Below, one piece after another: positions 3,654 through 53,561 of a stretch of 58,524 bases of DNA. Every line of letters starts with the position of its first letter. Positions within the stretch are counted from its first letter, which is position 1. Source of the DNA: Chloroflexota bacterium (lineage in GTDB: Bacteria > Chloroflexota > Limnocylindria > P2-11E); assembly GCA_005889445.1 (NCBI GenBank), contig VBGS01000095.1:1-58524 (forward strand). Reading direction: 5' to 3'. The notes under the pieces were generated by a model. That model searched no databases. It was given only the letters and a program-made list of their open reading frames with translations, and was not told the DNA's origin. The position numbers and the translations under genes are program-made.

Positions 3654-4687
3654 ACGAACCGCACCCTCCTGCCGAATGTGTGCGTGACGACACGTCCGAG
3701 CGCGTATGCGTCGGGGATCGCGGCGAGCGCGTTGTCGCGGTCGTCGGCGTCTATCGCGACGACCAGTCCGATGCCCATGTTCCACGTGTCGAACGCGTCC
3801 GCGATCGCCACGCGACCCAGCTCCGCGAGGAGAGTGAACAGCCGCGGAACGTCCCACGCTCCCCGATCGATCTCGGCCCCGAGGCCGTCGGGCAGCGCGC
3901 GCGGCAGATTCCCCTCCCAGCCTCCGCCGGTCAGGTGAGCGATCGCGTGTACGCGAGCGCGGTCGCGCAAGGCGCGGAACTCGTCGAGATATGCGCGATG
4001 AGGGGCGAGCAACGCATCGCCGATGGTCCTGTCGTCGAGGTCGCGGCGAGCCTCACCAAGCAGGTCCTCGAACGATCTCGTCTCACTCGCCGCCGCGCGC
4101 GCCAAGATCGTCCGCGCGAGCGTGTAGCCGTTGGTGTGCAGGCCCGTCGACGGGATCCCGATCAGCGCATCGCCCTCGCGGACGCGCTCCGGTCCAAGAA
4201 CGCGATCGCGCGCGACCGCACCGACAAGGAACCCCGCCAGGTCGTACGTGCCCGGCGCGTACATGCCCGGCATTTCGGCGGTCTCCCCGCCGAGCAGCGC
4301 CACTCGATGGCGCGCGCATGCGTCGGCCATCGCCCCAACGACGCGGGCGAAGACCGCGGGCTCGAGGTGCGACGTCGAGAAGTAGTCGAGGAAGAAAAGA
4401 GGCTCGGCGCCCATCGCCATCGCGTCGTTGATGCAGTGATGCACCAGGTCCGTGCCGACGACCTCGTGTCGATCGAGAAGGCGCGCGACCTCGAGCTTGG
4501 TGCCGACTCCGTCGGTGGTCGCGACGAGCACGGTGTCGGCGCCGGGTGACGCGAACAGCCCGCCGAACTGCCCGATGTCGCCGATGACCTCGGGCCGCCG
4601 CGTCTTGCGCAGCCGCTCGCGAACACGTGCGAGCGCGTCGTCCGCGCGACCGATGTCGACGCCAGCGGCCTTGTACGTCAGGCTCAC
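3650..4687 (-). CDS. purM: phosphoribosylformylglycinamidine cyclo-ligase (AIR synthase)
   Basis: VSLTYKAAGVDIGRADDA...TTDGVGTKLEVA...GGETAEMPG. GTG 4687 forms a GTGA overlap with the purF stop. Confidence 0.9.
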   Translation of the reverse strand: MSLTYKAAGVDIGRADDALARVRERLRKTRRPEVIGDIGQFGGLFASPGADTVLVATTDGVGTKLEVARLLDRHEVVGTDLVHHCINDAMAMGAEPLFFLDYFSTSHLEPAVFARVVGAMADACARHRVALLGGETAEMPGMYAPGTYDLAGFLVGAVARDRVLGPERVREGDALIGIPSTGLHTNGYTLARTILARAAASETRSFEDLLGEARRDLDDRTIGDALLAPHRAYLDEFRALRDRARVHAIAHLTGGGWEGNLPRALPDGLGAEIDRGAWDVPRLFTLLAELGRVAIADAFDTWNMGIGLVVAIDADDRDNALAAIPDAYALGRVVTHTFGRRVRFV

Positions 4688-6087
4688 GCGTTCACCTGCT
4701 CGGCCTCGAGCGAGTCCTTGCCGAGCTCGAGCTGCACGGGCACGAGGTAATCGCCGGTGAAGCACGCGGTGCAGAGCTCGGCCTCGGTGCCGCCGGTCGC
4801 GGCGACCATGCCCCCCAGCGAGAGATAGCCGAGCGTATCGGCGCCGATGTGCCGGCGGATGGCCTCGACCTCGAGTCGCGACGCGATGAGCTCGTCACGG
4901 CGCGCCATGTCCACGCCGAAGAAGCACTGGTGCCGGATCGGAGGCGAGCAGATGCGCATGTGGACTTCGCGTGCGCCGTGACCGCGGAGCAGCTCCACGA
5001 TCGGTCCGCTGGTCGACCCGCGCACGATCGAATCGTCGACGACCACGACGCGCTTGCCGTCGAGCACGTCGGCGAGCGCGTTGTACTTCAGCGCGACGCC
5101 CTGACGACGGAGCTCGGGCGACGGCTGGATGAACGTCCGACCGATGTACCGGTTCTTGATGAGGCCCTCGCGGAATGGGATCCCGCTGCGGCGGGCGTAG
5201 CCGACGGCTGCCGGGATCGCGCTGTCGGGCACCGGGATCACGACGTCGGCGATCGCGGGGTGCTCGTCGGCGAGCGTCTCCCCCATCCGTTCCCGCGCCG
5301 CGTAGACCGAGACGCCGCCGAGATCGCTCGCGACCGACGCGAGATACACGTGCTCGAACACGCACATCCCCCGGCGATCGGCCGCGAAGTCGGCGATCGG
5401 AACGGCCCCGCGGTCGTCGATCCGCAGCACCTCGCCGGGCGCGACGTCGCGGACGAAGGCTGCCCCGACGGTCTCGAGGGCGCAGGTCTCGCTCGCGACG
5501 ATCCACGTCTCCCCCTTGCGGCCGAGCGACAGCGGACGGACACCGAGCGGATCGCGGACCGCGTACAGCGCAGACGGTGTGAGGATCACCAGCGACCACG
5601 CGCCGTTCAGCTTCGGGAGCGCGCGGATCAGCCGCTCGTCCCACGTCGCACCGCTCTCGCACGCGACCATCTGCGCGACGACTTCAGTGTCGCTCGATGT
5701 GGCGAAGCGCGCGCCGCCACGCGCCAGCTCATCGCGCAGATCGCGCGCGTTGATGCAGTTGCCGTTGTGTCCGATGGCGAGCTCGCCCAGGCCCGCGGCG
5801 CTCACGACCATCGGCTGCGCGTTCTGGATCCGCGAGCTGCCCGTCGTCGAGTAGCGCGTATGGCCGATGGCCGCGCGCCCGCCGAGCACCGCGAGATCGG
5901 GCTCGCTGAAGACCTGACCGACGAGTCCCATGCGCCGCACGATGCGCAGGTCCGACCCGTCCGTTGCGGCGATTCCCGCCGACTCCTGCCCACGGTGCTG
6001 CAGCGCGTAGAGCGCGAAGAACGTGAGGCGCGCGGCCTCGGTCGGGTCGGCGGTCGTTGGGTTCCAGACGCCGGTGATGCCGCACAT
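4684..6087 (-). CDS. purF: amidophosphoribosyltransferase
   Basis: MCGITGV supplies the N-terminal nucleophile Cys. PRTase loop VVVVDDSIVRGSTSG. 467 aa. Confidence 0.95.
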   Translation of the reverse strand: MCGITGVWNPTTADPTEAARLTFFALYALQHRGQESAGIAATDGSDLRIVRRMGLVGQVFSEPDLAVLGGRAAIGHTRYSTTGSSRIQNAQPMVVSAAGLGELAIGHNGNCINARDLRDELARGGARFATSSDTEVVAQMVACESGATWDERLIRALPKLNGAWSLVILTPSALYAVRDPLGVRPLSLGRKGETWIVASETCALETVGAAFVRDVAPGEVLRIDDRGAVPIADFAADRRGMCVFEHVYLASVASDLGGVSVYAARERMGETLADEHPAIADVVIPVPDSAIPAAVGYARRSGIPFREGLIKNRYIGRTFIQPSPELRRQGVALKYNALADVLDGKRVVVVDDSIVRGSTSGPIVELLRGHGAREVHMRICSPPIRHQCFFGVDMARRDELIASRLEVEAIRRHIGADTLGYLSLGGMVAATGGTEAELCTACFTGDYLVPVQLELGKDSLEAEQVNA

Positions 6088-8340
6088 CTACGCGGCCCCC
6101 ATCGCGCGAGCGAGCCCCTCGGCATGCGCGCGTGCGAGCGACGCGACCGGCGTGCCGAGGACCGGCACCACCTCGAGCAGGTCGCCACCGATCGCGCCGA
6201 GCGTCCAGAGCGCGACCTGATGCTCGGCCGCGAGCGCGCGGAGGTCCGCCTCGTGCCTCGGATCGAGCACGAGCACGATGCCCGACGGCGCCTCGCCGAA
6301 CAGCGCGGCGCGCTTGTCGATCCCGCGGTACGCCGGCAGCGTGACCTTCATCCCGATGCCGTCGCGGATCGCGAGCTCGGCCAGCGCGACGCCGAGGCCG
6401 CCCTCCGCGCGGTCGTGCGCCGCGCGGATGATGCCGCGCGCGTGCGCGGCGAGCACGAGCTTCTGCAGACGCGCTTCGAGCGCGAGATCCATCTGGACGG
6501 GCCCGCGATGGACGCCGTGCATCGCGCCGTAGACGGCCGCGTCGAGCGAGACCAGCGCGTTTCCGGCGAGGATCACGACGTCACCGGCACGGCCGGTGGT
6601 CACGGGGATGTGCCTGGTCACCTCGGCGAGATGCCCGACCGCGCCGATCGTCGCGGCCGGCCAGACGTCCTGTCCGCGGGTCGCGTTGTACAGCGACACG
6701 TTGCCCGAGACGACCGGCACGCCAAGCGCCTCGCACGCGGCCTTGATCCCGGCGACCGTCCGCGTGAGCTGCCACGCGCCTTTGGGGCGCTCGGGATTTC
6801 CGACGTTGAGGCAGTCGGTGATCGCGAGCGGCGTCGCGCCCATGCACACCAGGTTGCGCGTCGCTTCCGCGACCGCCAGCGCGGCGCCGGCGAACGGATC
6901 GAGTGCCGCGAGCCGCGGCTGCGCGTCGATCGCGATCGCGATGCCATCCTCCCGCCCCTTGATGCGCATGACCGCGGCGTCGCCGCCGGGTCCGACCACC
7001 GTGTCGGTGCCGACCATCGAGTCGTAGGTCCGGTACACGGCGCGCCGCGAGGCGATCGGGGGCGACGCGAGGAGCTCGAGCAGCTCGAGCCCGATCTTGC
7101 CGGTCTGTCGCGGCTCCTCATCGCGCTCCGCGTCTCCGGAAAGGCGCTCGTCGGAGACCGGTCGATAGGACGAGGCGAGCTCGGAGATGTCGTATTCGGG
7201 CGCATCGTCGGCGAGCGCGCGCGGCGGAAGCTCGGCGACGAGCTCATCGCGGTCGAAGATCCGCAGCACCGGCTCCGCGATTACCTCGCCGATCCGCGCG
7301 CCATGCAGTTCCCACCTGCCAAAGATCCGCTCGACCTCGCGTTCGCGACCGGGACGCGCGACGACGAGCATTCGCTCCTGCGATTCGCTGAGCATCACCT
7401 CGTGGGGCGTCATCGCGCGGGCGCGGCGCGGGACAGCACTGACGTCGATGCGCACCCCGACCCGGCTCTTCGCCGCCACCTCGCTCGCCGCGCAGGTGAG
7501 CCCGGCGGCGCCGAGGTCCTGGACCGCTTCGATCGCGTCGTCGGCGACGAGTTCGAGCGTCGCTTCGAGCAGGAGCTTCTCGAGGAATGGGTTCCCCACC
7601 TGGACCGAGGGCCGCTTCTCGTCGGAGCCCGCGCCGAGCTCGAACGACGCCAGCAGCGACGCGCCCGCGATCCCATCGCGCCCGGTGTCGCTCCCGACGA
7701 GGTACACGGCGCTCCCGGGGCGCGCGCCGGACGCGAAGCGAAGGTCCTCGGCGCGGGCGATCCCGACGCACATGGCGTTCACCAGGGGGTTCTCGGCGTA
7801 AGAGTCTTCGAACGAGATGTGGCCGCCCACATCGGGGATGCCGACGCAGTTCCCGTAAAAGGAGATCCCGCCGACGACGCCCGCGATCGTGCGACGCACG
7901 CCCGGATCGGTCGGCGGGCCGAAGAAGAGCGCGTTGAGCACCGCGGTCGGTCGCGCGCCCATCGCGAAGACGTCCCGCAGGATGCCGCCCACACCGGTCG
8001 CGGCCCCCTGGTACGGCTCGATCGCGGATGGATGGTTGTGGCTCTCGACCTTGAAGACGCACAGCAGGCCGCCGCCGAGGTCGACCGCGCCCGCGTTCTC
8101 GCCGGGCCCGACCACGACCGCGGGCCCGTTCGTCGGCAACGTGCGCAGGAGCTGCTTCGAGTGCTTGTACGCGCAGTGTTCGCTCCACATCGCGCCGAAC
8201 ATCGCCCACTCAAGCGCGTTCGGCTCGCGAGCGATGAGCTCGCGCACGCGGGCGGCCTCGTCGTCGGTCAGGCCGACTTCGTGGGGGATCTGGTTAGGCT
8301 GCGCCGTCGTCGTCCCCGTCATCGTCGGGGACGCGCTCAC
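6088..8340 (-). CDS. purL: phosphoribosylformylglycinamidine synthase subunit II
   Basis: 750 aa with ...EPNALEWAMFGAMWSEHCAYKHSK... and duplicated AIRS-like domains. Starts at GTG 8340, with GGAGCG upstream. The stop abuts the purF start. Confidence 0.95.
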   Translation of the reverse strand: MSASPTMTGTTTAQPNQIPHEVGLTDDEAARVRELIAREPNALEWAMFGAMWSEHCAYKHSKQLLRTLPTNGPAVVVGPGENAGAVDLGGGLLCVFKVESHNHPSAIEPYQGAATGVGGILRDVFAMGARPTAVLNALFFGPPTDPGVRRTIAGVVGGISFYGNCVGIPDVGGHISFEDSYAENPLVNAMCVGIARAEDLRFASGARPGSAVYLVGSDTGRDGIAGASLLASFELGAGSDEKRPSVQVGNPFLEKLLLEATLELVADDAIEAVQDLGAAGLTCAASEVAAKSRVGVRIDVSAVPRRARAMTPHEVMLSESQERMLVVARPGREREVERIFGRWELHGARIGEVIAEPVLRIFDRDELVAELPPRALADDAPEYDISELASSYRPVSDERLSGDAERDEEPRQTGKIGLELLELLASPPIASRRAVYRTYDSMVGTDTVVGPGGDAAVMRIKGREDGIAIAIDAQPRLAALDPFAGAALAVAEATRNLVCMGATPLAITDCLNVGNPERPKGAWQLTRTVAGIKAACEALGVPVVSGNVSLYNATRGQDVWPAATIGAVGHLAEVTRHIPVTTGRAGDVVILAGNALVSLDAAVYGAMHGVHRGPVQMDLALEARLQKLVLAAHARGIIRAAHDRAEGGLGVALAELAIRDGIGMKVTLPAYRGIDKRAALFGEAPSGIVLVLDPRHEADLRALAAEHQVALWTLGAIGGDLLEVVPVLGTPVASLARAHAEGLARAMGAA

Positions 8341-8577
8341 GATCGGGTGATCGCTCCGCGCTGCACCATCACGTAAAGACTAGCGTGCTGTTGACCAGCG
8401 GTTGTGCCTTCGTTACTTCCGAGTGCATTTTTGCTTTGGCCACCTGAGTATCGTGGCCCTGGGCTACGTCGGGCGTCACGGGAGGGGACCTATCTCACAT
8501 CGAGGCTCCAATCGGCTTCGCCGCGCGCCCAAACGTAGACCCACGTCGCGAAACCTCGCCCAAGGAGGGCCACATCG

Positions 8578-21802: not shown

Positions 21803-21810
21803 GCGCGCGG

Positions 21811-21875
21811 TTGTCCACCGTTTGGGCCGCCGGTGGATACATGGTGGACGAATTTGGTGGAGAAGCCTGTGGACC
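21811..21875 (+). promoter_or_regulatory. cluster of five DnaA-box-like (TCCAC/GTGGA core) sites
   Basis: TTGTCCACC (21811-19), GGTGGATAC (21832-40), TGGTGGACG (21842-50), GGTGGAGAA (21856-64), CTGTGGACC (21867-75). The last four share one orientation and are spaced 10-14 bp apart. Confidence 0.45.
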
Positions 21876-21967
21876 TCGGTGCGGCGACGGAGGACCCTTT
21901 GCTACCGCCGACGTTCCGCTCGCTCCGCTTCCCAGGTGTGTTTGCCGGAGGTTTTGGTTGCGCCTGC

Positions 21968-21996
21968 TTGTCCGCATCGAACGTATGTTCGATACT
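21968..21996 (+). promoter_or_regulatory. candidate dnaB promoter with embedded LexA (SOS/Cheo) box
   Basis: TTGTCC (21968-73), 17 nt, GATACT (21991-96). The spacer holds TCGAACGTATGTTCGA (21977-21992), a perfect TCGAAC-N4-GTTCGA. The dnaB ATG is at 22005. Confidence 0.6.
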
Positions 21997-22004
21997 CTGT
22001 GTAG

Positions 22005-24587
22005 ATGACGCTCGAGACCCGGACCAACCGTCAGGTCCCGTTCGACGAGGGCGCCGAGCAGCAGGTGCTGGGAAGCCTGCTGTCGGATCGCGATGCGATC
22101 TTCAAAGTGGCGGATCTCCTCGGGGTCCAGGACTTCTACGTCCCGCGACATCAGCGCGTGTACGCAGCGGTGCAGGCGCTCCTCGAGCGGCGCGAGCGGA
22201 TCGATCCGCTCACCATCCAGGTCGAGCTGGCTCGCCGCGAGGAACTCGATCGCGTCGGCGGCGCGGCATTCCTGCGCGCGCTCACCGATGCCGTCCCGAC
22301 CGCGGTCGAGATCGAGCGGCACGCCCACGTCGTCCGCGACCGCGCGATCCTTCGCAGGCTGCTCGGCGCGGCGACCGCGATCGCCGCCGACGCCTACGAC
22401 GAGCCGACTGACATCCCGCTCGCCCTCGACCGGGCCGAGCAGCGCCTGTTCGCGCTCCGTGATGAATCCGCCAAAACGCAGCTCCGGCATATCACGGCGT
22501 CGCTCCAGACGAACTACGAGCACCTCACCGAGCGTATGGAGCGTCCCTTCGAGCTCTCGGGGATCCCCTCCGGCTTCAAGGAGGTCGACTACTACACGGA
22601 GGGCTTCACGACGGGGGACCTGATCGTCATCGCGGCGCGCCCGTCGGTCGGAAAGACGAGCCTCGCGCTGGGTATGACCTACAACATCGCGCGGCGCGGA
22701 CACCCGGTCCTGCTTTTTTCGCTTGAGATGGACACCAAGCAGATCGTCGCGCGCTTCCTCGCGCTCAACTCGCGAATGGATCTGCTCGCGATGCGGACCG
22801 GGAACATCATCGACACCGACGCCGCGGCGGCACTGCACGGCCTGCCGATCCTCATCGACGACACGCCCGGCATCTCGATCATGGAGCTGCGCACGAAGGC
22901 GCGCCGCGCGAGCACGCACGAGAAGATCGAGGTCATCGTCGTCGATTACCTCCAGCTCGTGCGAACCGGCGGTGAGGAAGAGAACCGCGTTCAGGAGATC
23001 GCGGCGATCACTCGCAATCTCAAATCACTCGCGCGCGAGTTGAACGTGGTCATCATCGGTCTGTCGCAGCTCTCGCGGGCCGCGGGCGATTCTGGAGGCG
23101 AACCGAAGCTCTCGACACTCCGCGAATGCGTAACGGCGGAAACGATCGTGTGCCTCGCAGACGGAAGGCGAATTCCCGTCTCTGAACTTGTGGGAACAAG
23201 GCCAGTGGTGTGGTCGCTCCGGAATGACCGCCTCGTCACGGCGGAGGCGGAGGCTGTCTTCGTCGTCGGGAGCAAGCCCGTTTACAAGGTCCGATTGGCG
23301 AGCGGACGGTCGATCCGCGCAACGGCCGAGCATCGCCTTCGCGGATTCGATCGGTGGCAAACCGTCGCGGAACTCAAGAGCGGTGACCGGCTCGCGATCG
23401 TCAGAAGGCTCCCGGAGCCCAATTCGACCGTCGAATGGCGCGACCCGAAGATCGGCTTTCTTGGTCAGATGATCGGCGACGGTAGCTACCTGAAGAGCGC
23501 TCCGATGCGCTACACGACGAGCTCTGAAGCAAACAGTCGCTTTGTGGCCGAAACCGCGATCGACGAGATTGGAGCCCGAGTGAAGCGATATCCGGATGTG
23601 GGCAACTGGCATCAGCTCCTAATCAGTGGAAACGGCAATCGCTGGCATCCCGCCGGTGTCAACCAATGGTTCCGACAGCTGGGGATTTTCGGACAGCGTT
23701 CGCATCAGAAGCGGGTTCCTCGCGATGCATTCGCCTTGTCAAACGAGCAGTTGAAGACGCTTCTGCGACATCTCTGGGCAACGGACGGGTCGATCAGCAT
23801 TCGCACCGGTCTTGGTGGACATGGCATGTACTACGCGACCAACAGCCCGGGGTTGGCGGCTGATGTCGCCGCCCTCCTTCTGCGATTGGAGATCGTGACC
23901 CGAACGATACGCACTGTTGAAACGCCGTACCTCCCGGGCTATCAAGTCCACATTTCGGGCACCGAGGCCCAGAGACGTTTCGTCGAGTCGGTGGGTGCGT
24001 TTGGGCCGCGGACTGAACCTGCCACCGCATTCATGGCCGTCACGGCGAACACCATTCCCAACACGAACGTCGACACGGTTCCGCGCGAGGTATTCGATGT
24101 GGTGCGCGCCCGCATGAAGCAACGACTGATCACGACGCGAGAAATGGCGCGCCTTCGTGGCACCTCGTACGGCGGATCAGGACACTTCAGCTTCTCGCCG
24201 TCACGACCGCATCTCGCCAGCTACGCGGAGCTTCTCGAGGACGACGAGCTCATGGCCCATGCGACCAATGATCTGTTCTGGGACGAGGTCATCGAGGTTG
24301 CGCCCGACGGCGAGGAGCTCGTCTATGACTTGACCGTTCCTGAGACCGAGTGCTGGCTTGCGGACGGGATCGTGAGTCACAACTCTGGCGCCCTCGAGCA
24401 AGATGCGGACATCGTGATGATGCTCTGGCGCGAAAAGGACGAGACCCCTCCCGGCGCGCCGCGGCTCATCAATGGCAGCGTCGCGAAGAACCGGAACGGA
24501 CCGACCGGGATCTTCCAGCTCCTGTTCGAGAGTGAGCAAGCCAAGTTCTTCTCGAAGGCACCCGAAGACAGCGGAGCGCCGGTATGA
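22005..24587 (+). CDS. dnaB: replicative DNA helicase DnaB, interrupted by an intein
   Basis: N-terminal domain ...VPFDEGAEQQVLGSLL..., Walker A ARPSVGKTSLAL, Walker B VVDYLQL, SQLSR, then ...KLSTLRE | intein | SGALEQDADIVMMLWRE...NRNGPTG. The extein is 441 aa. Confidence 0.9.
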   Translation: MTLETRTNRQVPFDEGAEQQVLGSLLSDRDAIFKVADLLGVQDFYVPRHQRVYAAVQALLERRERIDPLTIQVELARREELDRVGGAAFLRALTDAVPTAVEIERHAHVVRDRAILRRLLGAATAIAADAYDEPTDIPLALDRAEQRLFALRDESAKTQLRHITASLQTNYEHLTERMERPFELSGIPSGFKEVDYYTEGFTTGDLIVIAARPSVGKTSLALGMTYNIARRGHPVLLFSLEMDTKQIVARFLALNSRMDLLAMRTGNIIDTDAAAALHGLPILIDDTPGISIMELRTKARRASTHEKIEVIVVDYLQLVRTGGEEENRVQEIAAITRNLKSLARELNVVIIGLSQLSRAAGDSGGEPKLSTLRECVTAETIVCLADGRRIPVSELVGTRPVVWSLRNDRLVTAEAEAVFVVGSKPVYKVRLASGRSIRATAEHRLRGFDRWQTVAELKSGDRLAIVRRLPEPNSTVEWRDPKIGFLGQMIGDGSYLKSAPMRYTTSSEANSRFVAETAIDEIGARVKRYPDVGNWHQLLISGNGNRWHPAGVNQWFRQLGIFGQRSHQKRVPRDAFALSNEQLKTLLRHLWATDGSISIRTGLGGHGMYYATNSPGLAADVAALLLRLEIVTRTIRTVETPYLPGYQVHISGTEAQRRFVESVGAFGPRTEPATAFMAVTANTIPNTNVDTVPREVFDVVRARMKQRLITTREMARLRGTSYGGSGHFSFSPSRPHLASYAELLEDDELMAHATNDLFWDEVIEVAPDGEELVYDLTVPETECWLADGIVSHNSGALEQDADIVMMLWREKDETPPGAPRLINGSVAKNRNGPTGIFQLLFESEQAKFFSKAPEDSGAPV
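23127..24383 (+). mobile_element. DnaB intein (419 aa) with LAGLIDADG homing-endonuclease domain
   Basis: Starts with Cys (CVTAETIVCLADG). Block B is ATAEHRL. LAGLIDADG-like motifs are FLGQMIGDGSY and LLRHLWATDGSI. Blocks F and G are LVYDLTVPETECWLADGIVSHN, followed by the +1 Ser. Confidence 0.85.
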
Positions 24588-25912
24588 CGATCGCCGTCGA
24601 TCGCGGCGTCAAGCCACCGCCGGAAAAACCCGAGGCGGAGGCTTCGCTCCTGGGCGCGATGCTCATGGACGGCACGATCTACAACGAGGTAGCGCGTGGG
24701 CGCCTCGCGCCGGCGGATCTCTCCCGCGAGCAGCATCGCATCGTCCTCGGGGCGATCGCGCGCGTCGCGGATCGCAGCGAGCATGTCGGGTTCGCGACCG
24801 TGCAGGCCGAGCTCGCCGCGCGCGACGAGCTCGACGCGGTCGGCGGTCCGCAGTTCCTCGTCGGCCTCATGCAGTCCGTTCCGACGGTCGCGCACGCCGC
24901 CAGCTACGCGGCGATCGTCGAGCGGACGGCGCTGCTGCGACGGCTCATCGGCGTCGCGAACGAGATCGCACGCCTCGCGCTCACACGCGACGAGGCGAGC
25001 GCCGCGGTCGCCGACGCGCAGGAGCTGCTCTTCGCCGTGAGCGAAACGACGCTGCACCGCGACATCGTCTCGCTCGAGGTCGCGCTCCACCGCTACGCGG
25101 AGCAGATCGACCAGCGCGGCGATCAGCGCATCGGGATCAAGTCCGGGCTCGATTCGGTCGACAAACGGACCGGCGGGCTGCAGCCCTCCGACCTCATCCT
25201 CATCGCCGGTCGTCCCGGCCTGGGCAAGACGAGCTTCGCGCTCAACATCGTCGAGCATGCCGCGATCGTCGAGCGGAAGACATGCGCCTTCTTCTCGATG
25301 GAGATGAGCGAGATGCAGGTCGTGCAGCGTCTTGTGTCGATGCTCGCCGAGATCGATGGGAACCGCATGCGGCGCGGGCGCCTTTCGACGCAGGAGTTCG
25401 TCGCGATCTCGGCCGCGTCCAGCCAGCTGCAGCAGGCGCCGATCTACGTCGAGGAGTCCAACCGGCTCACGGTCACGGACATCCTCGCGAAGTCGCGGCG
25501 CCTTCAGGCCGAGCGTGGGCTCGACTTGGTCGTCATCGACTATCTGCAGCTCATCGAAGGCGTCGAGCAGGACGAGAGCCGCGTCCTCGAGGTCGCCCGG
25601 ATCAGCCGGGCGCTCAAGGCGATCGCCCGCGAGCTCGAGGTGCCGGTGGTCGCGCTCTCGCAGCTCTCGCGGCAGATCGAGCAGCGCGGGACCGAGCCGA
25701 TGCTCTCAGATCTTCGCGAAAGTGGCGCTCTCGAAGCCGACGCAGATCTCGTGATGTTCCTCTGGCAGAAGGACCGCAAGGACCGCGAAGAGGGCGTGGT
25801 GCGGCTCAAGCTCGCGAAACACCGCAACGGCCCAACCGGCGACTTCGATCTTCATTTCCAGTCCGAGCTCACGCGGTTCCGCGATCTCGGGGAGACGCGC
25901 GAAGGCGCCTAG
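24584..25912 (+). CDS. dnaB: second DnaB-family replicative helicase, no intein
   Basis: ATGA overlap with the stop of the first copy. ...PEAEASLLGAML..., GRPGLGKTSFAL, VVIDYLQL, SQLSRQIEQR, and an uninterrupted PMLSDLRESGALEADADLVMFLW...HRNGPTG. Confidence 0.9.
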   Translation: MTIAVDRGVKPPPEKPEAEASLLGAMLMDGTIYNEVARGRLAPADLSREQHRIVLGAIARVADRSEHVGFATVQAELAARDELDAVGGPQFLVGLMQSVPTVAHAASYAAIVERTALLRRLIGVANEIARLALTRDEASAAVADAQELLFAVSETTLHRDIVSLEVALHRYAEQIDQRGDQRIGIKSGLDSVDKRTGGLQPSDLILIAGRPGLGKTSFALNIVEHAAIVERKTCAFFSMEMSEMQVVQRLVSMLAEIDGNRMRRGRLSTQEFVAISAASSQLQQAPIYVEESNRLTVTDILAKSRRLQAERGLDLVVIDYLQLIEGVEQDESRVLEVARISRALKAIARELEVPVVALSQLSRQIEQRGTEPMLSDLRESGALEADADLVMFLWQKDRKDREEGVVRLKLAKHRNGPTGDFDLHFQSELTRFRDLGETREGA

Positions 25913-25915
25913 CCG

Positions 25916-26362
25916 CTACGCCGGCTCGATCGCGACGGTCACGTTGGCGCGTACATCCGGCGCCAGACGCACTTCGACGGTGTGCACGCCGAGCGTCTTC
26001 AGCGGCTCGTGAAGGGTGATCTTCGTCTTGTCGATCGGTGACCTTGCTTCCTTTGTGAGCGCGTCGGCGATCTCCTTCGTCGTCACGCTGCCGAAGGTCT
26101 TCCCCTGGTCCCCTGCCTTGAGCTTGAACACGAGCGTGACCCCACCGAGCCGCTTCGCGAGCTCCTCCGCATCGCCGTGCGCGCGGTCCTTCTTGACCTT
26201 CTCTGCCTGACGCTCCTGGGCGAGATGCTTGAGCTCGCCGCCGGTGGCCTCGATCGCCAGGCCCTTCGGCAGGAGGTAGTTGCGCGCGAACCCGTCGGCG
26301 ACGTCCTTCACGTCGCCAGGACGGCCGAGACCCCGGACTTCGGATTTGAGGATGACGCGCAT
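25916..26362 (-). CDS. rplI: 50S ribosomal protein L9
   Basis: MRVILKSEVRGLGRPGDVKDVADGFARNYLLPKGLA... 148 aa. Its stop is 3 nt from the dnaB2 stop, and the two genes converge. Confidence 0.9.
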   Translation of the reverse strand: MRVILKSEVRGLGRPGDVKDVADGFARNYLLPKGLAIEATGGELKHLAQERQAEKVKKDRAHGDAEELAKRLGGVTLVFKLKAGDQGKTFGSVTTKEIADALTKEARSPIDKTKITLHEPLKTLGVHTVEVRLAPDVRANVTVAIEPA

Positions 26363-26976: not shown

Positions 26977-27769
26977 GCACTTCCCCCTGCGGGAACCGTG
27001 CCCGCAGCGCCGCGAGCGCCTTCGCGAGCGCGGTCTCGCGGTCGGCCGCCCAGAACGAGACGAGGTACTGCGCCTTGCCGTCCTGCACGCTGCGGAGTTC
27101 GGCGCGGGCCGGGGGCTCGGGCGAGATGCCGTCGGTCTTCGCGAGGCTCGCGCGGATTTCGTCGGCGGTGATCGCCGGAGCGTCCGCGGGCAGCGCAAGC
27201 CATGCATCCACCCGGCGGGTCGGGAAGCGCGTCGTGTTCACGACCGCCGAGGTCATGAACGTGCCATTGGGGACGATGACCTGCCGACCGTCATCGGTCC
27301 GCATCTGCGTCGTGCGGAACGAGATGTCCTCGACGGTGCCCGAGAAGCCCGACACTTCGATGACATCGCCGATGTTGAACGGGCGCTCGACGAGGACCCA
27401 GGCCCCTGCGAAAAAGTTCTTCAGGATGTCCTGCAGCGAAAGACCGATGACGATCGCGACCGCGCTGAATGACCCAAGGATCCAGCCGAACGCGTCGCGG
27501 GTGTAGATCGCGACGATCCCGAGCGCCCCGATCGTGATCACGGCGATCTGTGCGACGTTGCCGATGAGGATGGTCGCGTTCCCGTAAGCGCGGTGTCGCG
27601 CAAGGGTCCGCATCGTCGCCCCGCGGATGGCGCGCGCCACGAGAAGCGTGACTGCGGCGATGACCAGGGCCCAAAAGGTCCGGGCTCCGTAGTCGAGCAG
27701 GTTCTCCCGGACGACCGCCGGGTCGAGGGGCACGGCGCGAGAATACGGGGCCGCTTGACAACTGAACAT
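26969..27769 (-). CDS. MscS-family mechanosensitive channel
   Basis: ...LQDILKNFFAGAWVLVERPFNIGDVIEVSGFSGTVEDISFRTTQMRTDDGRQVIVPNG.... The start is uncertain: ATG 27769 lies inside the lexA operator, and GTG 27733 is an alternative. Confidence 0.75.
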   Translation of the reverse strand: MFSCQAAPYSRAVPLDPAVVRENLLDYGARTFWALVIAAVTLLVARAIRGATMRTLARHRAYGNATILIGNVAQIAVITIGALGIVAIYTRDAFGWILGSFSAVAIVIGLSLQDILKNFFAGAWVLVERPFNIGDVIEVSGFSGTVEDISFRTTQMRTDDGRQVIVPNGTFMTSAVVNTTRFPTRRVDAWLALPADAPAITADEIRASLAKTDGISPEPPARAELRSVQDGKAQYLVSFWAADRETALAKALAALRARFPQGEVHG

Positions 27770-27784
27770 CTGTTCGGTTAGCCT
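27755..27784 (+). promoter_or_regulatory. lexA promoter with LexA box
   Basis: TTGACA (27755-60), then GAACATCTGTTC (27764-75) in the spacer, then TAGCCT (27779-84). The lexA GTG is at 27794, only ~10 nt downstream of the -10. Confidence 0.7.
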
Positions 27785-27793
27785 CTGACGAGC

Positions 27794-28405
27794 GTGACCA
27801 AGCAGGACCAGCAGCGGGCGGAAAAGATCCTGGCCTTCATCCGCGAGGCGGTCGCCGAGCGGGGGTATCCCCCGAGCGTCCGCGAGATCGCGGAGGCGGT
27901 CGGGCTGGCCTCCACGTCCGCCGTGCACCACCACCTCACCAAGCTCGAGAAGGAAGGCCGCCTGACCAAGGAGGCCACCAGGTCGCGGGCGCTCAGCCTC
28001 CCCGGTTCACTTGGCACAAAGGTCGTGCAGGCGCCGATCGTCGGGGAGATCGCGGCCGGCCAGCCGATCCATGCCTACGAGGACCGCTCCGAGACGATCA
28101 CCCTTCCCAGCGAGCTGTCCGCGTCGCGGGGCCGCGAGACGTTCGTGCTTCGCGTTCGCGGCAAGTCGATGATCGAGGACCACATCGACGACGGCGACTT
28201 TGTCGTCGTGCAAGAGCAGAACACCGCGCGGGACGGCGACATCGTCGTGGCGCTCCTGGAGGACAACGTGGCCACCCTCAAGCGCTTCTACAAGGAGCGC
28301 GATCGGGTGCGGCTGCAGCCGGCGAACGGCACGATGTCGCCCATCTACGCGCGCGATGTCCAGATCCAGGGAAAAGTGATAGGCGTCATCCGACGCCTCG
28401 CCTAA
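27794..28405 (+). CDS. lexA: LexA repressor
   Basis: ...GYPPSVREIAEAVGLASTSAVHHHLTKLEKEG... is the wHTH. The Ala-Gly cleavage site is in VGEIAAGQPI, and GKSM / ATLKRF supply the Ser-Lys dyad. Confidence 0.95.
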   Translation: MTKQDQQRAEKILAFIREAVAERGYPPSVREIAEAVGLASTSAVHHHLTKLEKEGRLTKEATRSRALSLPGSLGTKVVQAPIVGEIAAGQPIHAYEDRSETITLPSELSASRGRETFVLRVRGKSMIEDHIDDGDFVVVQEQNTARDGDIVVALLEDNVATLKRFYKERDRVRLQPANGTMSPIYARDVQIQGKVIGVIRRLA

Positions 28406-28417
28406 CCTCCACGCACC

Positions 28418-29536
28418 ATGCCCACTCGCGTTCCAACGATCACCGACCGTGAGCTGAACCGCGCGCTCCTCGCGCGACAGCTCCTCCTCGAGCGGCGCAA
28501 GGTCGGCATCGTCGACGCGATCGAGCGTCTGGGAGGTCTTCAGGCGCAGTGGGCGCCTTCACCATACGTCGCGCTCTGGAGCCGGCTCGTCGCGTTCGAG
28601 CGCGATCAGCTCACCCGGCCGATCGAGCGCGGCCAGATCGTGAAGGCGACCCTGATGCGCGCGACGCTCCATCTGATATCGGCACGCGAATACCCGGCGT
28701 ACTCGCTCGCCACGATGGAAGGGCGCTTCGGTGCGTGGCGTCCGCCTGGCGGTCCGGCGCTGGACGATCTGAGGGACGTGCACGCCAGCGTCCTGAAGTT
28801 CGCGGCAAAGACGCCGCGGACCCGGGACGAGATCGGTGATCACATCGCGGCGCATCTGCCAAAAAGCGCGGTGAATGACGAGCGCATGCGGAACTGGCTC
28901 CTCTGGGCCGCCATCGCCACGAGCGGCCTGATCTGGGAGGCGGCGGGCGCGCGCTGGGAGCACCGGCAGCTCGCGCGCCACATCGCACCGCCAGCGCGGC
29001 TGCGGCAGTTGCCCCGCCCGGAGGCCGCATACGACCTCGTCGTGCGGCGGCATCTCGGCGCGTTCGGGCCGGCGACCGTCAGCGACATCGCGACGTGGAG
29101 CAGCATCCGCGTCCCTCAGATACGCGCGGCGCTCGGGCGCCTCCGCGGTCTACGGCGCTTCACCGATGAAAGAGGACGCGAGCTCATCGATCTCGCGGCC
29201 GCGCCACGTCCCGACCCTGACACGAACGCCCCGGCGCGCTTCCTGGCGCGCTTTGACGCGGCGATCCTGGGTCACGCCGCACCCGAGCGGACGCGAATCC
29301 TGCCCGACGCCTACCGCAAGGCGGTCATCTTCTCCGCAGAGGTGTTCACCACATTCCTCGCGGACGGCTTCGTCGCCGGTCTCTGGAAGATCTCGGCGAC
29401 GCCCAAGCAGGCGGTGCTCGAGCTGCGTCCGTTCAAAAGACTCCCGCGCGCCGTCCGCACCGCGCTCGTCGAGGAGGGCGAGCAGCTGGTGCGCTTCTAT
29501 TACCCCGAGTCCCGGATCCACGGGGTTCGCGTATGA
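28418..29536 (+). CDS. HTH_42 (DUF1006) winged-helix protein, AlkZ/YcaQ-like putative DNA glycosylase, copy 1
   Basis: ...RELNRALLARQLLLERRKVGIVDAIERLGGLQAQWAPSPYVALWSRL...ATLMRATLHLISA...FLADGFVAGLWKI.... Starts 12 nt after the lexA stop. Confidence 0.7.
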   Translation: MPTRVPTITDRELNRALLARQLLLERRKVGIVDAIERLGGLQAQWAPSPYVALWSRLVAFERDQLTRPIERGQIVKATLMRATLHLISAREYPAYSLATMEGRFGAWRPPGGPALDDLRDVHASVLKFAAKTPRTRDEIGDHIAAHLPKSAVNDERMRNWLLWAAIATSGLIWEAAGARWEHRQLARHIAPPARLRQLPRPEAAYDLVVRRHLGAFGPATVSDIATWSSIRVPQIRAALGRLRGLRRFTDERGRELIDLAAAPRPDPDTNAPARFLARFDAAILGHAAPERTRILPDAYRKAVIFSAEVFTTFLADGFVAGLWKISATPKQAVLELRPFKRLPRAVRTALVEEGEQLVRFYYPESRIHGVRV

Positions 29537-30657
29537 GGGTCGCCGCGGAGAAGGCACTCACGCTCCGCGAGCTCAATCGCGCGATGCTCGCGCGACAGCT
29601 CCTCCTCGAGCGCACAAAGCTGGGCATCGTCGCCGCGATCGAGCGCCTGCCCGCGCTTCAGGCGCAGTGGGCGCCGTCGCCGTACTACGCGCTGTGGGCG
29701 CGACTCGCTCACTTCACGCGGGAGCGTCTTTGGGCTGCGATCGAGAGCCACCGCGTGATCCGCGCGCGGTTGATGCGAGGCACGCTGCACCTGGTGAGCG
29801 CTCGCGATTTCTACGCCTACGCCGTCGCAACGCAGGACCTCCAGCGCGGCGCGTGGAACCGCGTCCAGGTCGCAAAGGGCATCGAGCCCGATGCGGTCGC
29901 GGAGCTCGCGATCGCGTTCGCGCGACACCCGCGCGCGCGCGAGGACGTGATCGCGCACCTTCGCGACCGGCTCGGCGAGGTCTTCAACGAGGACTACCGG
30001 TGGCTGCTCTGGCGTTTCGTCAGCGCGCACGCCGATCTGGTGTCGGCGCCGCCCGGCGGGCACTGGGGATACGGCGGGACCGAGGCGCCGTACGTTGCCG
30101 CGAAGCACTGGATCGCACACGGATCGCGGCCAAACGAGGACGCGGCGCTCGACGTCCTTGTCCGGCGCGCCGTCGCCGCATTCGGTCCGGCGACCCTCGC
30201 CGATGTCGCCAAATTCGCCGGCGCGGTACCGGCCCGGATCCGACCGGCCCTCGACCGTCTCGCGCCACGGCTCGCGCGCTTCCAGGACGAGCAGGGCCGC
30301 ACGCTGTTCGATCTCAAGCGATCGCCTCGACCATCCCCGGACCTGAAGCCACCGATCCGTTTTCTGCCGCGGTACGAGCAGATCCTCATCGCCTATCAGC
30401 ACCGGGATCGCGTCATCGCCCCACGCCATCGCCCGGCGATCTACTCCAAGAACGGAATCATCGAGGCAACGTTCCTCGTGGACGGGTTCGTCGCCGGGAC
30501 ATGGTCGGTGGTCAGGAACAAGAGCGACGCGGTCGTCGCGGTGCACCCGTTCGCACGGCTCGCGCCGGCAGACCGAACGGCGGCGCTCGTTGAGGCCGAG
30601 CGGCTGGCGAGATTCGCTGTGCCCGAGGCCCGCGTCCACGGGGCGAAGGTCGCGTGA
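29533..30657 (+). CDS. HTH_42 (DUF1006) winged-helix protein, AlkZ/YcaQ-like, copy 2
   Basis: ATGA overlap with copy 1. ...RELNRAMLARQLLLERTKLGIVAAIERLPALQAQWAPSPYYALWARL...RLMRGTLHLVSA...FLVDGFVAGTWSV.... Confidence 0.7.
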   Translation: MRVAAEKALTLRELNRAMLARQLLLERTKLGIVAAIERLPALQAQWAPSPYYALWARLAHFTRERLWAAIESHRVIRARLMRGTLHLVSARDFYAYAVATQDLQRGAWNRVQVAKGIEPDAVAELAIAFARHPRAREDVIAHLRDRLGEVFNEDYRWLLWRFVSAHADLVSAPPGGHWGYGGTEAPYVAAKHWIAHGSRPNEDAALDVLVRRAVAAFGPATLADVAKFAGAVPARIRPALDRLAPRLARFQDEQGRTLFDLKRSPRPSPDLKPPIRFLPRYEQILIAYQHRDRVIAPRHRPAIYSKNGIIEATFLVDGFVAGTWSVVRNKSDAVVAVHPFARLAPADRTAALVEAERLARFAVPEARVHGAKVA

Positions 30658-31868
30658 ACGAACCGCGCGCGATCCTGCACTGCGATCTCGATGCGTTCTA
30701 CGCGTCGGTCGAGCAGCGCGACCACCCCGAGTACCGCGGAAGGCCGGTCATCGTCGGCGGCGGCGGACCGGAGGAGCGCGGTGTGGTCATGGCGGCTTCG
30801 TACGAAGCGCGCAGGTTCGGGGTCCGCTCCGCGATGCCGCTGCGGATGGCCGGGCGGCTCTGCCCCGATGCCATCTTCGTTCCCGGCGACCACGAGCAGT
30901 ACGGAAGGGCGTCCGACGACGTGATGGCGCTCTTCGAGGAGCGCACGCCCCTCGTTGAGCCCATCTCTCTCGACGAGGCGTTCCTCGACGTCACCGCCAG
31001 CGTGGAGCTGTTCGGGGGTCCGGAGCAGATCGCGCGTTCGATCAAGGACGACGTACGCGCGCGGTGCGGACTCGTGATCTCGGTCGGCGTCGCGACGAAC
31101 AAGCTCTGCGCGAAGATCGGTTCCGACCTGCGGAAGCCCGACGGGTTGGTCGTCGTGCCGCCCGGGACAGAGGCCGCGTTCCTGGCGCCGCTTCCGCTCG
31201 AGCGCCTGTGGGGCGTCGGCCCGAAGACGCGCGAGGTGCTCGGTCTGTGGGGTCTGCGGACGGTCGGCGAGCTGGCGGTGTTCGACCGAAAGACCCTTGA
31301 AACGCGGCTCGGCGAGCATGGCATCGACATCTGGGAGCGCGCCAACGGGATCGACGACGGGGCCGTGATCGCCAGCGGCGCGCCACCGAAGTCCGTTGGT
31401 CATTCGCATACGTTCGACGAGAACACGCTCGATCCGTCGAAGATCGAGTCAACGCTGCTCCGGCTCGCGGAAGGAGTTGGCCGGCGGTTGCGCGATCACC
31501 GGCTGCTCGGCAGGACCGTCACGCTCACGCTGCGCGTCGCGCCGTTCGAGACGCGGACGCGCCAGCGCACGTTTAGCGAGGCGACCAACGACGACGCGCG
31601 GATCTTTCATGTTGCGCGTCAGCTGCTGCGGGAAGCGCTCGCCGAGGATCGGCAGGGCGGACGCACGAGCCCTGTTCGGTTAGTCGGCGTCTCGCTGTCC
31701 GGACTTGTTGGAGGGGAGCAGCTTGGATTATTCGAGAGCGCCCGTCACAACCGACTCAATGCCGCGTTAGACGCAGTTCGCGCTCGTTTTGGCGATGACG
31801 CGCTCGATCGAGCGAGCGTACGCGAGCGCGCCGAGCGCCGTCGGTTCAGCGGACACAAGTCGAGATGA
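30654..31868 (+). CDS. dinB: DNA polymerase IV (Y-family)
   Basis: GTGA overlap with the preceding gene. ILHCDLDAFYASVEQRD...VGGGGPEERGVVMAASYEARRFGVRSAMP...SLDEAFLDVT.... Confidence 0.9.
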   Translation: MNEPRAILHCDLDAFYASVEQRDHPEYRGRPVIVGGGGPEERGVVMAASYEARRFGVRSAMPLRMAGRLCPDAIFVPGDHEQYGRASDDVMALFEERTPLVEPISLDEAFLDVTASVELFGGPEQIARSIKDDVRARCGLVISVGVATNKLCAKIGSDLRKPDGLVVVPPGTEAAFLAPLPLERLWGVGPKTREVLGLWGLRTVGELAVFDRKTLETRLGEHGIDIWERANGIDDGAVIASGAPPKSVGHSHTFDENTLDPSKIESTLLRLAEGVGRRLRDHRLLGRTVTLTLRVAPFETRTRQRTFSEATNDDARIFHVARQLLREALAEDRQGGRTSPVRLVGVSLSGLVGGEQLGLFESARHNRLNAALDAVRARFGDDALDRASVRERAERRRFSGHKSR

Positions 31869-45723: not shown

Positions 45724-47168
45724 TGGATCAGCGGCGCCGCCGCGCGTAGCGCCCACTCGTAGAGCGAATTCGGCAGGATCCCAAGCGCGATCACCGCGAG
45801 CGAGGCGAGCCCGAGGCTCGCCGATAGGCCGCGCGCGCTGATGATCCGGGGCACTGCGCCCTCGGGCTCGTACATGTACATGTGCACGACCACGCGCAGG
45901 TAGTAGAACGCCGCCAGCACCGCGTTGAGCGCGATGACCACGGCGAGCCAGGCGAGCCCCGCGTCGAGCACAGGCTGGATGACGATGAACTTCGCGACGA
46001 AGCCCACCGTGGGCGGGATGCCGGTGAGCGAGATGAGGAAGATCGCGAACGCGAGCGCACCGACCGGCTCGCGCCGGCCGAACCCGTTGAGCTCGTCGAG
46101 CGTTGCGCCGCGGGTCCCGTCTAGATCGAGGTACAGCAGACACGCGAAGGCCCCGAGGTTCATGAGCCCGTAGGCGAACAGATAGAACAGGACAGCCGCA
46201 CTGGCGCTCGGGCCCGCCTTCGCCGCCGCCACGGCTGCGAGGATGTATCCGGTGTGCGCGATGCTCGAGTACGCGAGCATCCGCTTCGTGTTCGTCTGCG
46301 CGAGAGCGACGATGTTGCCGCCGGTCATGGTGAGGGCCGCGAGGATGGCGAGGACGGCGCTCCAGTCGACGCCGAGCGGCCCGAGCGCGCCGACCAGCAG
46401 TCGCAGGATCGCGGCGAAGGCCGCCGCTTTCGGGCCGACGGACATGAAGGCCGTCGCCGGCGTCGGGGCTCCGTCATACGCATCGGGGGTCCACTGGTGG
46501 AACGGGACGACTGCCGCCTTGAACCCGAGCCCGACGGTGACGAGAGCGAGCGCGACGATCGTCGGACCGTTCGCGATGCCCTGCGTCGCGAGCACTCCCG
46601 CGATCGTGGCGAAGTCGGTCGCATGGGTGACCCCATACAGCCAGACGAAGCCGTAGAGCAGGAGCGCCGAGCTGAACGCGCCGAGGAGGAAGTACTTGAG
46701 GGCGGCCTCGTTCGCGTAGCGATCCGTCCGCTGGATGCCCGCGAGGACGTAGATCGGGATGGTCATCGTCTCGAGACCAACGAACAGGGTGATCAGATCG
46801 GACGACAGCGCGATGGTCATCGCGCCGACGGTCGAGAAGCAGATGATCGCGTAGTACTCGCCGGCGGGAACCCTGCGGCGCGCGAGATATGCGGGCGAGA
46901 CGAGCGCCGCGAAGACCGCGAGCAGGATGAAGATCGCGCGGAAGAACGTCGTGAACGCGTCGATCGTGACGAACCCACGGAAGTACTGACCCGGGGCGAC
47001 CGCGCCGAAGACGCTCGCGAAGGCCACCAGCAGGCCGGCGACGGTGATGATGGCGAGGATCGCGCCCTGGCGGCGCTCGCCGAGCGTCGCGCCGGCGACG
47101 AGAACGATCATCGCGACGACCGTCACGATGATCTCTGGGTAGACCGCGGCGATGTCGCTCGGATTCAT
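45720..47168 (-). CDS. nuoN: NADH-quinone oxidoreductase subunit N
   Basis: MNPSDIAAVYPEIIV...LFVGLETMTIPIYVLAG...KYFLLGAFSSALLLYG.... 482 aa from ATG 47168. Confidence 0.9.
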   Translation of the reverse strand: MNPSDIAAVYPEIIVTVVAMIVLVAGATLGERRQGAILAIITVAGLLVAFASVFGAVAPGQYFRGFVTIDAFTTFFRAIFILLAVFAALVSPAYLARRRVPAGEYYAIICFSTVGAMTIALSSDLITLFVGLETMTIPIYVLAGIQRTDRYANEAALKYFLLGAFSSALLLYGFVWLYGVTHATDFATIAGVLATQGIANGPTIVALALVTVGLGFKAAVVPFHQWTPDAYDGAPTPATAFMSVGPKAAAFAAILRLLVGALGPLGVDWSAVLAILAALTMTGGNIVALAQTNTKRMLAYSSIAHTGYILAAVAAAKAGPSASAAVLFYLFAYGLMNLGAFACLLYLDLDGTRGATLDELNGFGRREPVGALAFAIFLISLTGIPPTVGFVAKFIVIQPVLDAGLAWLAVVIALNAVLAAFYYLRVVVHMYMYEPEGAVPRIISARGLSASLGLASLAVIALGILPNSLYEWALRAAAPLIH

Positions 47169-47178
47169 TCGCAGGGTC

Positions 47179-51453: not shown

Positions 51454-51461
51454 GGCACCCT

Positions 51462-52610: not shown

Positions 52611-52613
52611 CCC

Positions 52614-53375: not shown

Positions 53376-53427
53376 ACCGACACCGCGCCGTGACCGACGG
53401 CTTGGTTGCAGAACCCTCGTTGCGCGG

Positions 53428-53457
53428 TTGACACCTTCGTTGGGCGCGGGTTACGGT
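53428..53457 (+). promoter_or_regulatory. candidate sigma-70-type promoter for the LysM-M23 gene
   Basis: TTGACA (53428-33), 18 nt, TACGGT (53452-57). This implies a leader of ~100-200 nt, depending on which start codon is used. Confidence 0.3.
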
Positions 53458-53561
53458 GACGACCTCCCGAAGCTCAAGTACGCAATTCGTACATGTCTGC
53501 TTGTTGGGATAGCGAGCGAGCGTCGTGGTGAGAGAAGAAATCGGGGAGGGAAAGCCGGGTC

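Follow-up and report, generated by a model that had tools for sequence, protein, structure and literature searches.

An overlapping pair of dnaB genes in Candidatus Limnocylindria, with a predicted LexA operator and a polymorphic intein

The replicative helicase of bacteria, DnaB, is a textbook homo-hexamer whose N-terminal collar is a trimer of dimers (e.g. in the 2R6A family of structures). Known DnaB proteins are the products of single genes, whereas the locus described here encodes two. In a 58,524-nt stretch of DNA from a Chloroflexota bacterium (contig VBGS01000095.1 of assembly GCA_005889445.1; hereafter the window), two paralogues that are only 37% identical, which we call dnaB1 and dnaB2, are arranged as an overlapping gene pair, and dnaB1 contains an intein. 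The dnaB pair is a fixed, clade-wide feature of Candidatus Limnocylindria, a soil lineage of the Chloroflexota. None of the components (DnaB, DnaB inteins and LexA boxes) is new in itself, but a clade-wide overlapping pair of diverged, catalytic dnaB genes is undescribed in the literature that we searched, which also held nothing relevant on tandem or heteromeric DnaB, or on DnaB in Limnocylindria. The duplicated replication genes that one review of bacteria names are dnaE, dnaN, dnaQ, dnaG and ssb, without dnaB (PMC3290774).

The other elements of the locus also have described counterparts. Inteins at motif H4 of DnaB are found in mycobacteria (M. tuberculosis DnaBi and M. smegmatis DnaBi2, at site a) and in Synechocystis and Nostoc; the window intein is of the same class-1 LAGLIDADG type and lies in the same H4 loop but, unlike the known DnaB inteins, it is hosted by one member of a paralogue pair. 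The Gram-positive or actinobacterial type of LexA box (in full TCGAAC-N4-GTTCGA) has the same GAAC-N4-GTTC core as the boxes reported here, and is likewise found upstream of lexA. In M. tuberculosis, the dnaB promoter contains a LexA motif and the gene is induced by damage (PMC3381160, PMC8151990), although that site is weak or unconfirmed by chromatin immunoprecipitation, whereas the operator predicted here is an exact match in 70 of 70 loci and lies partly over the core promoter. Finally, duplicated ring-ATPase subunits that have been retained, co-expressed and co-evolving are also seen in Mcm2-7 (derived from archaeal MCM) and in the alpha3beta3 ring of F1-ATPase. This likeness is by analogy only, and F1 alpha has lost catalytic residues, whereas neither DnaB paralogue has done so.

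The dnaB1–dnaB2 pair and its promoter

Both genes lie on the plus strand, dnaB1 at 22005–24587 (a precursor of 860 aa and a spliced product of 441 aa) and dnaB2 at 24584–25912 (442 aa), and the stop codon of the first overlaps the start codon of the second in the sequence ATGA at 24584–24587, a layout that suggests translational coupling. A first-pass annotation, made from the sequence alone, had described two full-length helicase genes placed head-to-tail with this overlap, and the open reading frames agree. The DnaB N-terminal (PF00772) and C-terminal (PF03796) domains were found in both products, which have the same N-terminal domain, linker and RecA-like C-terminal domain as bacterial DnaB (TIGR00665; Geobacillus stearothermophilus, PDB 2R6A/4ESV), and the same Walker A and B motifs, catalytic Glu, H3 Gln, RESG DNA loop and Lys/Arg finger. 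Against the TIGR00665 equivalog model ('replicative DNA helicase'), for which the curated cut-off is 385.25 bits over the whole protein, DnaB1 scores 404.6 with its intein in place and DnaB2 scores 441.6; intein-free DnaB1 orthologues reach 418–427 bits and the DnaB2 family spans 441.6–456.9 bits. The motifs of dnaB1 are all intact, namely GKT (22635–22661), SLEM (22716–22730), DYLQL (22938–22958), SQLSR (23061–23078) and AKNRNG (24483–24500).

We surveyed relatives on two long metagenomic contigs (1.1 Mb and 194 kb) and in 79 loci from species-representative genomes, counting the overlap wherever the dnaB1/dnaB2 junction lay on the contig. This gave 80 loci from independent Candidatus Limnocylindria assemblies, and the tandem arrangement with a 4-nt overlap was present in every one (ATGA in 73, GTGA in five and TTGA in two). 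Neither gene has ever been lost in the approximately 80 species. Ten catalytic or DNA-contact positions (K216, T217, E241, D320, Q362, R381, E382, G384, K418 and R420 in G. stearothermophilus numbering) are invariant in 70 DnaB1 and 75 DnaB2 proteins, except that T217 is sometimes Ser and that E382 is Asp in 13 DnaB2. Similarly, the Walker A and B motifs, the catalytic Glu, the H3 Gln, the H4 RESG loop and the Lys/Arg finger are all kept, the exception being a change of Ser383 to Gly in 22 intein-free DnaB1. Both paralogues look like working helicases that have been inherited together. A degenerate, loader-like or non-catalytic paralogue was considered and is ruled out, the motifs being invariant in both copies.

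The pair is old. Spliced DnaB1 and DnaB2 share 37% identity over 425 aligned positions, which agrees with the impression, formed by eye in the first-pass annotation, that the exteins are well under half identical and that the duplication is not recent. Orthologues of both copies, at 55% identity in each case, and a LexA box exist already in a deeper lineage (L087), so that a recent duplication is ruled out on both counts. Within the clade the two proteins have evolved at the same pace, with a mean pairwise identity of 75.9% for DnaB1 and 76.8% for DnaB2, and their distances are strongly correlated (r = 0.95 over 2080 species pairs). When LexA, RplI and the neighbouring epimerase are controlled for, the partial correlation is 0.64, the highest among 10 gene pairs. 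Between 57 and 60 sites are conserved within each paralogue yet differ between the two. At paralogue-specific sites of the N-terminal domain, DnaB1 has the ancestral state in 10 of 15 cases and DnaB2 in three of 15, and in the N-terminal helical hairpin the sequences show reciprocal, position-specific charge swaps. Net charge complementarity of the two N-terminal hairpins was also sought but was not found, only the position-specific swaps.

The promoter region of the pair is the intergenic stretch at 21803–22004, which separates dnaB1 from a divergent epimerase gene. From sequence reading and conservation we predict a plus-strand promoter at 21968–21996, consisting of TTGTCC (21968–21973), a 17-nt spacer and GATACT (21991–21996); a generic sigma-70 promoter scan at dnaB1 returned no call. 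Within the spacer, and overlapping the -10 hexamer, lies a predicted LexA operator, TCGAACGTATGTTCGA (21977–21992), which is a perfect 16-bp palindrome with the core GAAC-N4-GTTC. Only two exact copies of this core occur in the window, one 13 nt before the dnaB1 ATG and the other, GAACATCTGTTC (27764–27775), 19 nt 5' of lexA (plus strand, 27794–28405; 27764–28405 with its box). Exact boxes are present upstream of dnaB1 in the 70 loci mentioned above and upstream of lexA in 65 of 65, and in 956 kb of related loci 134 of the 137 exact boxes precede one or other of these genes, leaving three elsewhere. Across loci the half-sites never change, while the 4-nt spacer between them varies freely. We therefore predict that the helicase operon is a core LexA target and, together with lexA, its cognate repressor gene, the clearest one in the region. 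Because the operator occupies the promoter spacer, expression of the dnaB pair should rise in the SOS response, and this invariant element would link helicase supply to SOS more clearly than any described system that we found. The dnaB1 ATG is only 8 nt beyond the -10 hexamer in the window; in relatives, a -10 resembling TAGAAT or TAGACT directly follows the LexA box, and the start codon comes 11–13 nt past the box in most loci. With the start codon so close behind both the hexamer and the box, the dnaB1 mRNA is probably leaderless.

Nowhere else in the window do DnaA-box-like 9-mers cluster as densely as in this intergenic region (five in 300 bp with up to two mismatches, against 0.26 expected). 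In the related loci (L001–L083), DnaA boxes with at most one mismatch occur upstream of dnaB1 at 0.70 per 250 nt, compared with a background of 0.026, an enrichment of about 27-fold. This cluster could reflect DnaA control of helicase expression; that it is part of an origin is less likely, because the spacer is short and GC-rich. We also note that a relative with a single dnaB (L084) has a perfect TTATCCACA between lexA and dnaB, at 7860–7880.

An intein in the DNA-binding loop of DnaB1

DnaB1 is interrupted, after KLSTLRE, by a 419-aa element encoded at 23127–24383 on the plus strand, which the first-pass annotation had taken for an intein on the basis of its termini, a TxxH block and two LAGLIDADG motifs. 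These residues were all located. The element begins with Cys1, has the TxxH block RATAEH (23316–23333), ends in VSHN and is followed by Ser+1, and its LAGLIDADG motifs, LGQMIGDGS (23460–23486) and LWATDGS (23772–23792), are conserved in all 13 full-length relatives. Profile searches concur, as the intein models PF14890 (61.1 against a cut-off of 35.8), TIGR01445 (38.1 against 24.5) and TIGR01443 (27.1 against 15.6) and the endonuclease model PF14528 (53.9 against 22.5) all score above their cut-offs. Thus, the element is a class-1 intein with a LAGLIDADG homing endonuclease, inserted between the Glu and Ser of LRE|SG in motif H4, that is, between E382 and S383 of the DNA-binding loop. Its closest solved relatives are the cyanobacterial DnaB mini-inteins. 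The third-position GC content (GC3) of the intein is 0.72, compared with 0.86–0.89 in the exteins and dnaB2, and this accounts for a dip in GC at 22–25 kb. Since the intein interrupts the DNA-binding loop, the precursor would be non-functional, and splicing must precede any binding of DNA by DnaB1.

The insertion point differs slightly from that of the described H4 inteins. In the mycobacterial and cyanobacterial proteins, site a is RESG|S, and the RE|SG site of the window intein lies two residues upstream. The position of site a follows from the 'G-1' residue reported in PMC6195587 and from the Ssp DnaB exteins. To judge from the matching offset, the site in the window is probably 'site c' of PMC4760082, which is likewise two residues away from a.

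The second gene reads straight through the homologous site (SDLRE|SGALEADAD, junction at 25720/25721), as had been noted from the sequence at the outset, along with a difference in the DNA around the two sites. By hand count, 26 of 39 flanking nucleotides are identical between dnaB1 and dnaB2, with 14 of 18 identical in the central 9 nt on each side of the insertion point. As regards a possible DNA-level immunity of the dnaB2 site to the endonuclease, the fixed differences are a T/D codon at -3 and a Q/A codon at +6, which are at or past the edge of a typical target; most of the differences fall within the synonymous variation of intein-bearing DnaB1 alleles, some of which share, for instance, the AGT Ser codon of dnaB2.

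Among the relatives, 15 of 70 DnaB1 genes carry the intein, 13 in full length and two as mini-inteins that have lost the endonuclease, and the other 55, including an allele that is 94% identical, are free of it. Among further mini-inteins in the protein database, three different endonuclease deletions are seen. The identity between inteins rises with that between their exteins (r = 0.84) and is never the higher of the two, the endonuclease domain is conserved as strongly as the splicing domain, and intein GC3 is below that of the host in 15 of 15 cases. In many phyla, DnaB has a relative of the intein, with 53–65% identity, at this LRE|SG junction. Three of 75 DnaB2 genes (L066 1332–2558, L067 2178–3404 and L071 8341–9582) have their LRE|SG site occupied by a second lineage of LAGLIDADG inteins, which are 409–414 aa long and only 29–31% identical to the DnaB1 intein; L071 has both a mini-intein in DnaB1 and a full intein in DnaB2. 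In addition, the Ser383 that would serve as Ser+1 has become Gly, giving REGG, in 22 of the 55 intein-free DnaB1 (for example L003, L005–L016, L049, L051 and L079), in at least two independent clades that include that of the window itself, and this change is almost never seen in DnaB2. To judge from the lost Ser+1, such REGG alleles cannot host this intein, and they are possibly either 'immunised' homing sites or scars of intein loss.

On these comparisons, the intein is an old selfish element that has been carried mostly vertically and lost many times over, while purifying selection still acts on its endonuclease. It is no designed part of the helicase system; the empty dnaB2 site is the usual state of dnaB2, and the contrast between an occupied and an empty site is by itself ordinary intein polymorphism. 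The wider value of these data is that they display a homing cycle in paralogous targets, with full, mini- and lost inteins, Gly alleles that are non-hosts, and a second lineage in the sister gene.

Origin of the pair and how it may work

An exhaustive, profile-free search with an intein-free DnaB1 recovered a compact DnaB1 family at 87, 70, 68 and 55% identity, after which the next proteins were at 46% or less. The best outgroup of both paralogues (P0367, from a 'Candidatus Limnocylindrales' metagenome-assembled genome) is 44% identical to DnaB1 and 46% to DnaB2. It is encoded by a single dnaB directly downstream of lexA, adjoining genes for DUF1232, rplI and dinB, a neighbourhood that is the same as that of the pair. 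Because this syntenic single gene of a related lineage is about equally distant from both copies, we place the pair at the ancestral helicase locus, where it most likely arose by duplication, both copies diverging afterwards. The initial expectation of a single-copy dnaB at such a place holds in this sister lineage, which shows the source of the pair. A role of the pair as the replication-fork helicase of the cell is supported indirectly, by the adjacency of rplI and by the single dnaB at the syntenic locus of the relative. P0367 is 49–51% identical to generic DnaB proteins, whereas DnaB1 and DnaB2 are at most 44% identical to them; with the single-copy protein closer to generic DnaBs than either paralogue, both copies are on long branches. 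No canonical LexA box was found directly upstream of dnaB in the single-dnaB relative, in which the gene may be read through from lexA.

A conserved, coupled pair at the ancestral locus, a LexA operator and a selfish, polymorphic intein make up, jointly, a description in which we have high confidence. How the two proteins work can be answered more cautiously. In the model that we favour, dnaB1 and dnaB2 would be transcribed from one promoter, with the LexA operator in its spacer, as a probably leaderless mRNA; the 4-nt stop/start overlap would couple their translation and so favour equal amounts of the two proteins; the intein would be spliced from DnaB1 before the DNA loop exists; and the products would form a hetero-hexameric ring with three of each subunit, alternating, which matches the trimer-of-dimers collar of DnaB. 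We are led to this model because coupling favours 1:1 synthesis, because neither gene is ever lost, because both copies moved away from the ancestor before reaching equal rates, because a trimer-of-dimers collar would fit two subunit types, and because conserved differences set the paralogues apart (the N-terminal domain is of ancestral type in DnaB1 and derived in DnaB2, and charges are swapped reciprocally in the hairpin); the paralogue-specific sites, the N-terminal asymmetry and the charge swaps are suggestive. Our best overall explanation, with the hetero-hexamer included, is evenly poised between right and wrong, and co-assembly of DnaB1 and DnaB2 in one hetero-hexamer, taken alone, stands at even chances or slightly below. 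The strictest form, in which an obligate hetero-hexamer of three heterodimers is controlled by LexA and maybe DnaA while separate inteins parasitise the same loop independently, is offered tentatively, as something that we would sooner doubt than accept.

Several points weigh against a mixed ring. Co-assembly is predicted from sequence comparison. The rate covariation is possibly inflated, since distances between DnaB proteins, which are longer than the controls, carry less noise. Our survey covered individual loci, so that a third dnaB may exist elsewhere, in which case this LexA-controlled pair could be an accessory helicase. Furthermore, complete active sites in both paralogues would be needed equally by two independent homo-hexamers. 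This is the main alternative, namely two homo-hexameric helicases with divided labour (e.g. oriC and normal forks against restart or damage-induced replication) that are co-transcribed for convenience. It would account for the retention of all catalytic residues, for both proteins passing the DnaB equivalog model, for the predicted LexA control of the promoter and for the asymmetric divergence of the N-terminal domain, the site of primase and collar contacts, in which DnaB2 is derived and DnaB1 ancestral. It does not sit well with the translational coupling in 80 of 80 loci, nor with the absence of any loss in about 80 species; identical rates and the strongest covariation among the tested pairs fit stoichiometric partners better, and the long branches of both copies, relative to the single-copy protein, are what would be expected if they were mutually adapted. 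We consider two separate homo-hexamers unlikely, though deserving of serious attention. A further alternative is that the intein now serves the host as a post-translational gate, with conditional splicing setting DnaB1 maturation under oxidative or SOS stress and DnaB2 acting as a buffer. A precursor interrupted in its DNA-binding loop cannot function, conditional splicing has been documented for mycobacterial DnaB inteins (PMC6195587, PMC7360933), the intein lineage has long accompanied DnaB1 and the operon is under predicted SOS control, all of which suit a gate. However, most DnaB1 genes do without the intein, even one 94% identical, and 22 of these could no longer host it; and intein loss, mini-inteins made by three different deletions, an endonuclease as conserved as the splicing domain, and foreign-like codon usage in every case are together typical of a selfish homing cycle. 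A splicing gate is thus very improbable.

Two other alternatives concern the source of the pair. One of the paralogues (DnaB1 more plausibly than DnaB2) might be foreign, having been inserted beside the native dnaB long ago by a phage or mobile element and then domesticated. In a neighbour-joining tree, each paralogue is monophyletic in 200 of 200 bootstraps, but the deeper nodes are unresolved and a clade of DnaB1 and DnaB2 (with or without the single copy) appears in at most one of 200, so that the case for duplication in situ comes from synteny and equal distances. In the same tree DnaB1 neighbours two DnaB proteins from phage-like contigs, one (P0371) encoded beside terminase and portal genes and the other (P0374) beside DUF5131 and VRR-NUC genes, and the 37% identity of DnaB1 to DnaB2 is no higher than that to DnaBs of other organisms. 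These phage copies are, however, just 43–45% identical to DnaB1, and P0371 shares 61% identity with the single-copy DnaB of the host, which makes the phage genes look host-derived. Both paralogues are equally far from the syntenic single-copy protein, the flanks of the pair hold no mobile-element genes, and neither copy reaches the phage or genomic-island helicase models: DnaB1 and DnaB2 score 303–343 bits against TIGR03600 (phage_DnaB, cut-off 498.65 bits) and 285–310 bits against NF040583 (SPI-7 type, cut-off 655 bits), and their best identity to any GenBank phage DnaB is 39–41%. A foreign origin therefore seems to us quite unlikely, and in-situ duplication remains the preferred account. The last alternative is an artefact of assembly, either a chimeric join or a collapsed duplication of the dnaB genes of two strains. 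The window does come from a metagenome-type assembly, and one related metagenome-assembled genome has dnaB2 split across two contigs (L079, L082). Yet the same gene order and 4-nt overlap recur in the 80 independently assembled contigs, from many studies and some of them 1.1–1.2 Mb long, and the copies are far too different to be strain variants; the chance of an artefact is negligible. The first-pass annotation had named a chimeric join, a mobile-element helicase in a prophage and failure of the insert in intein profile searches as outcomes that would overturn its reading, and the analysis found none of the three.

If the favoured model is correct, this may be the first replicative helicase of bacteria to be built from two kinds of subunit, and an obligate hetero-hexamer would be the first bacterial counterpart of the transition from MCM to Mcm2-7. 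Whatever its architecture, a fixed pair of catalytic dnaB genes is a natural experiment on how ring helicases turn heteromeric, and it bears on how collar asymmetry, primase binding and loader binding may be shared between subunits.

In the wider sample we also encountered phage-like metagenome contigs (L088 and L090) with terminase, portal, ParB-N, DUF5131 and VRR-NUC genes, and with DnaB genes up to 61% identical to the single-copy DnaB of Limnocylindrales. They probably represent phages that infect this bacterial group and have captured a host helicase.

The surrounding genes

Upstream of the pair are purN, purM, purC, purB, purD, guaA and purA, followed by the divergent gene for an NAD-dependent epimerase. 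Downstream are the convergent rplI, genes for a DUF1232 protein and an MscS channel, then lexA, a gene for an AlkZ-like glycosylase and dinB, with the nuo operon further on. No phage or plasmid genes were found among the genes flanking the pair in the window, and the nearest homologues of DnaB1 and DnaB2 are labelled Chloroflexi or Chloroflexota, or Candidatus Limnocylindria. A prophage or mobile-element region is ruled out by the purine-synthesis, rplI, lexA/dinB and nuo genes on either side, and an assembly duplication by the recurrence of the pair in 80 loci.

The rplI gene (ribosomal protein L9, with Pfam L9 N- and C-terminal domains) is at 25916–26362 on the minus strand, its stop codon 3 nt from that of dnaB2 (25912–25916), and no terminator-like hairpin was found between these convergent genes. 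The order in most bacteria is rplI and then dnaB, both on one strand. The adjacency is kept in the relatives and in the single-dnaB lineage, and rplI next to dnaB2 is a remnant of the usual rplI–dnaB linkage.

The SOS gene block at 27764–31868 comprises lexA with its own box, the AlkZ-like DNA glycosylase gene, of which relatives have two in tandem, and a gene for a dinB-type Y-family polymerase. These genes appear to form one LexA-controlled transcription unit near the helicase operon.

Elsewhere in the window, two very long open reading frames (4627–8376 on the plus strand, 1249 aa; 54138–57113 on the minus strand, 991 aa) have an unusually high first-position GC content of 0.86–0.90 and gave no Pfam match; either they encode low-complexity proteins or the frames are spurious, owing to the GC-rich DNA. 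Finally, the region at 46000–54000 has a strong positive AT skew (0.15–0.28) and a positive GC skew, and it coincides with the minus-strand genes for the nuo membrane subunits (nuoH-, L-, M- and N-like).

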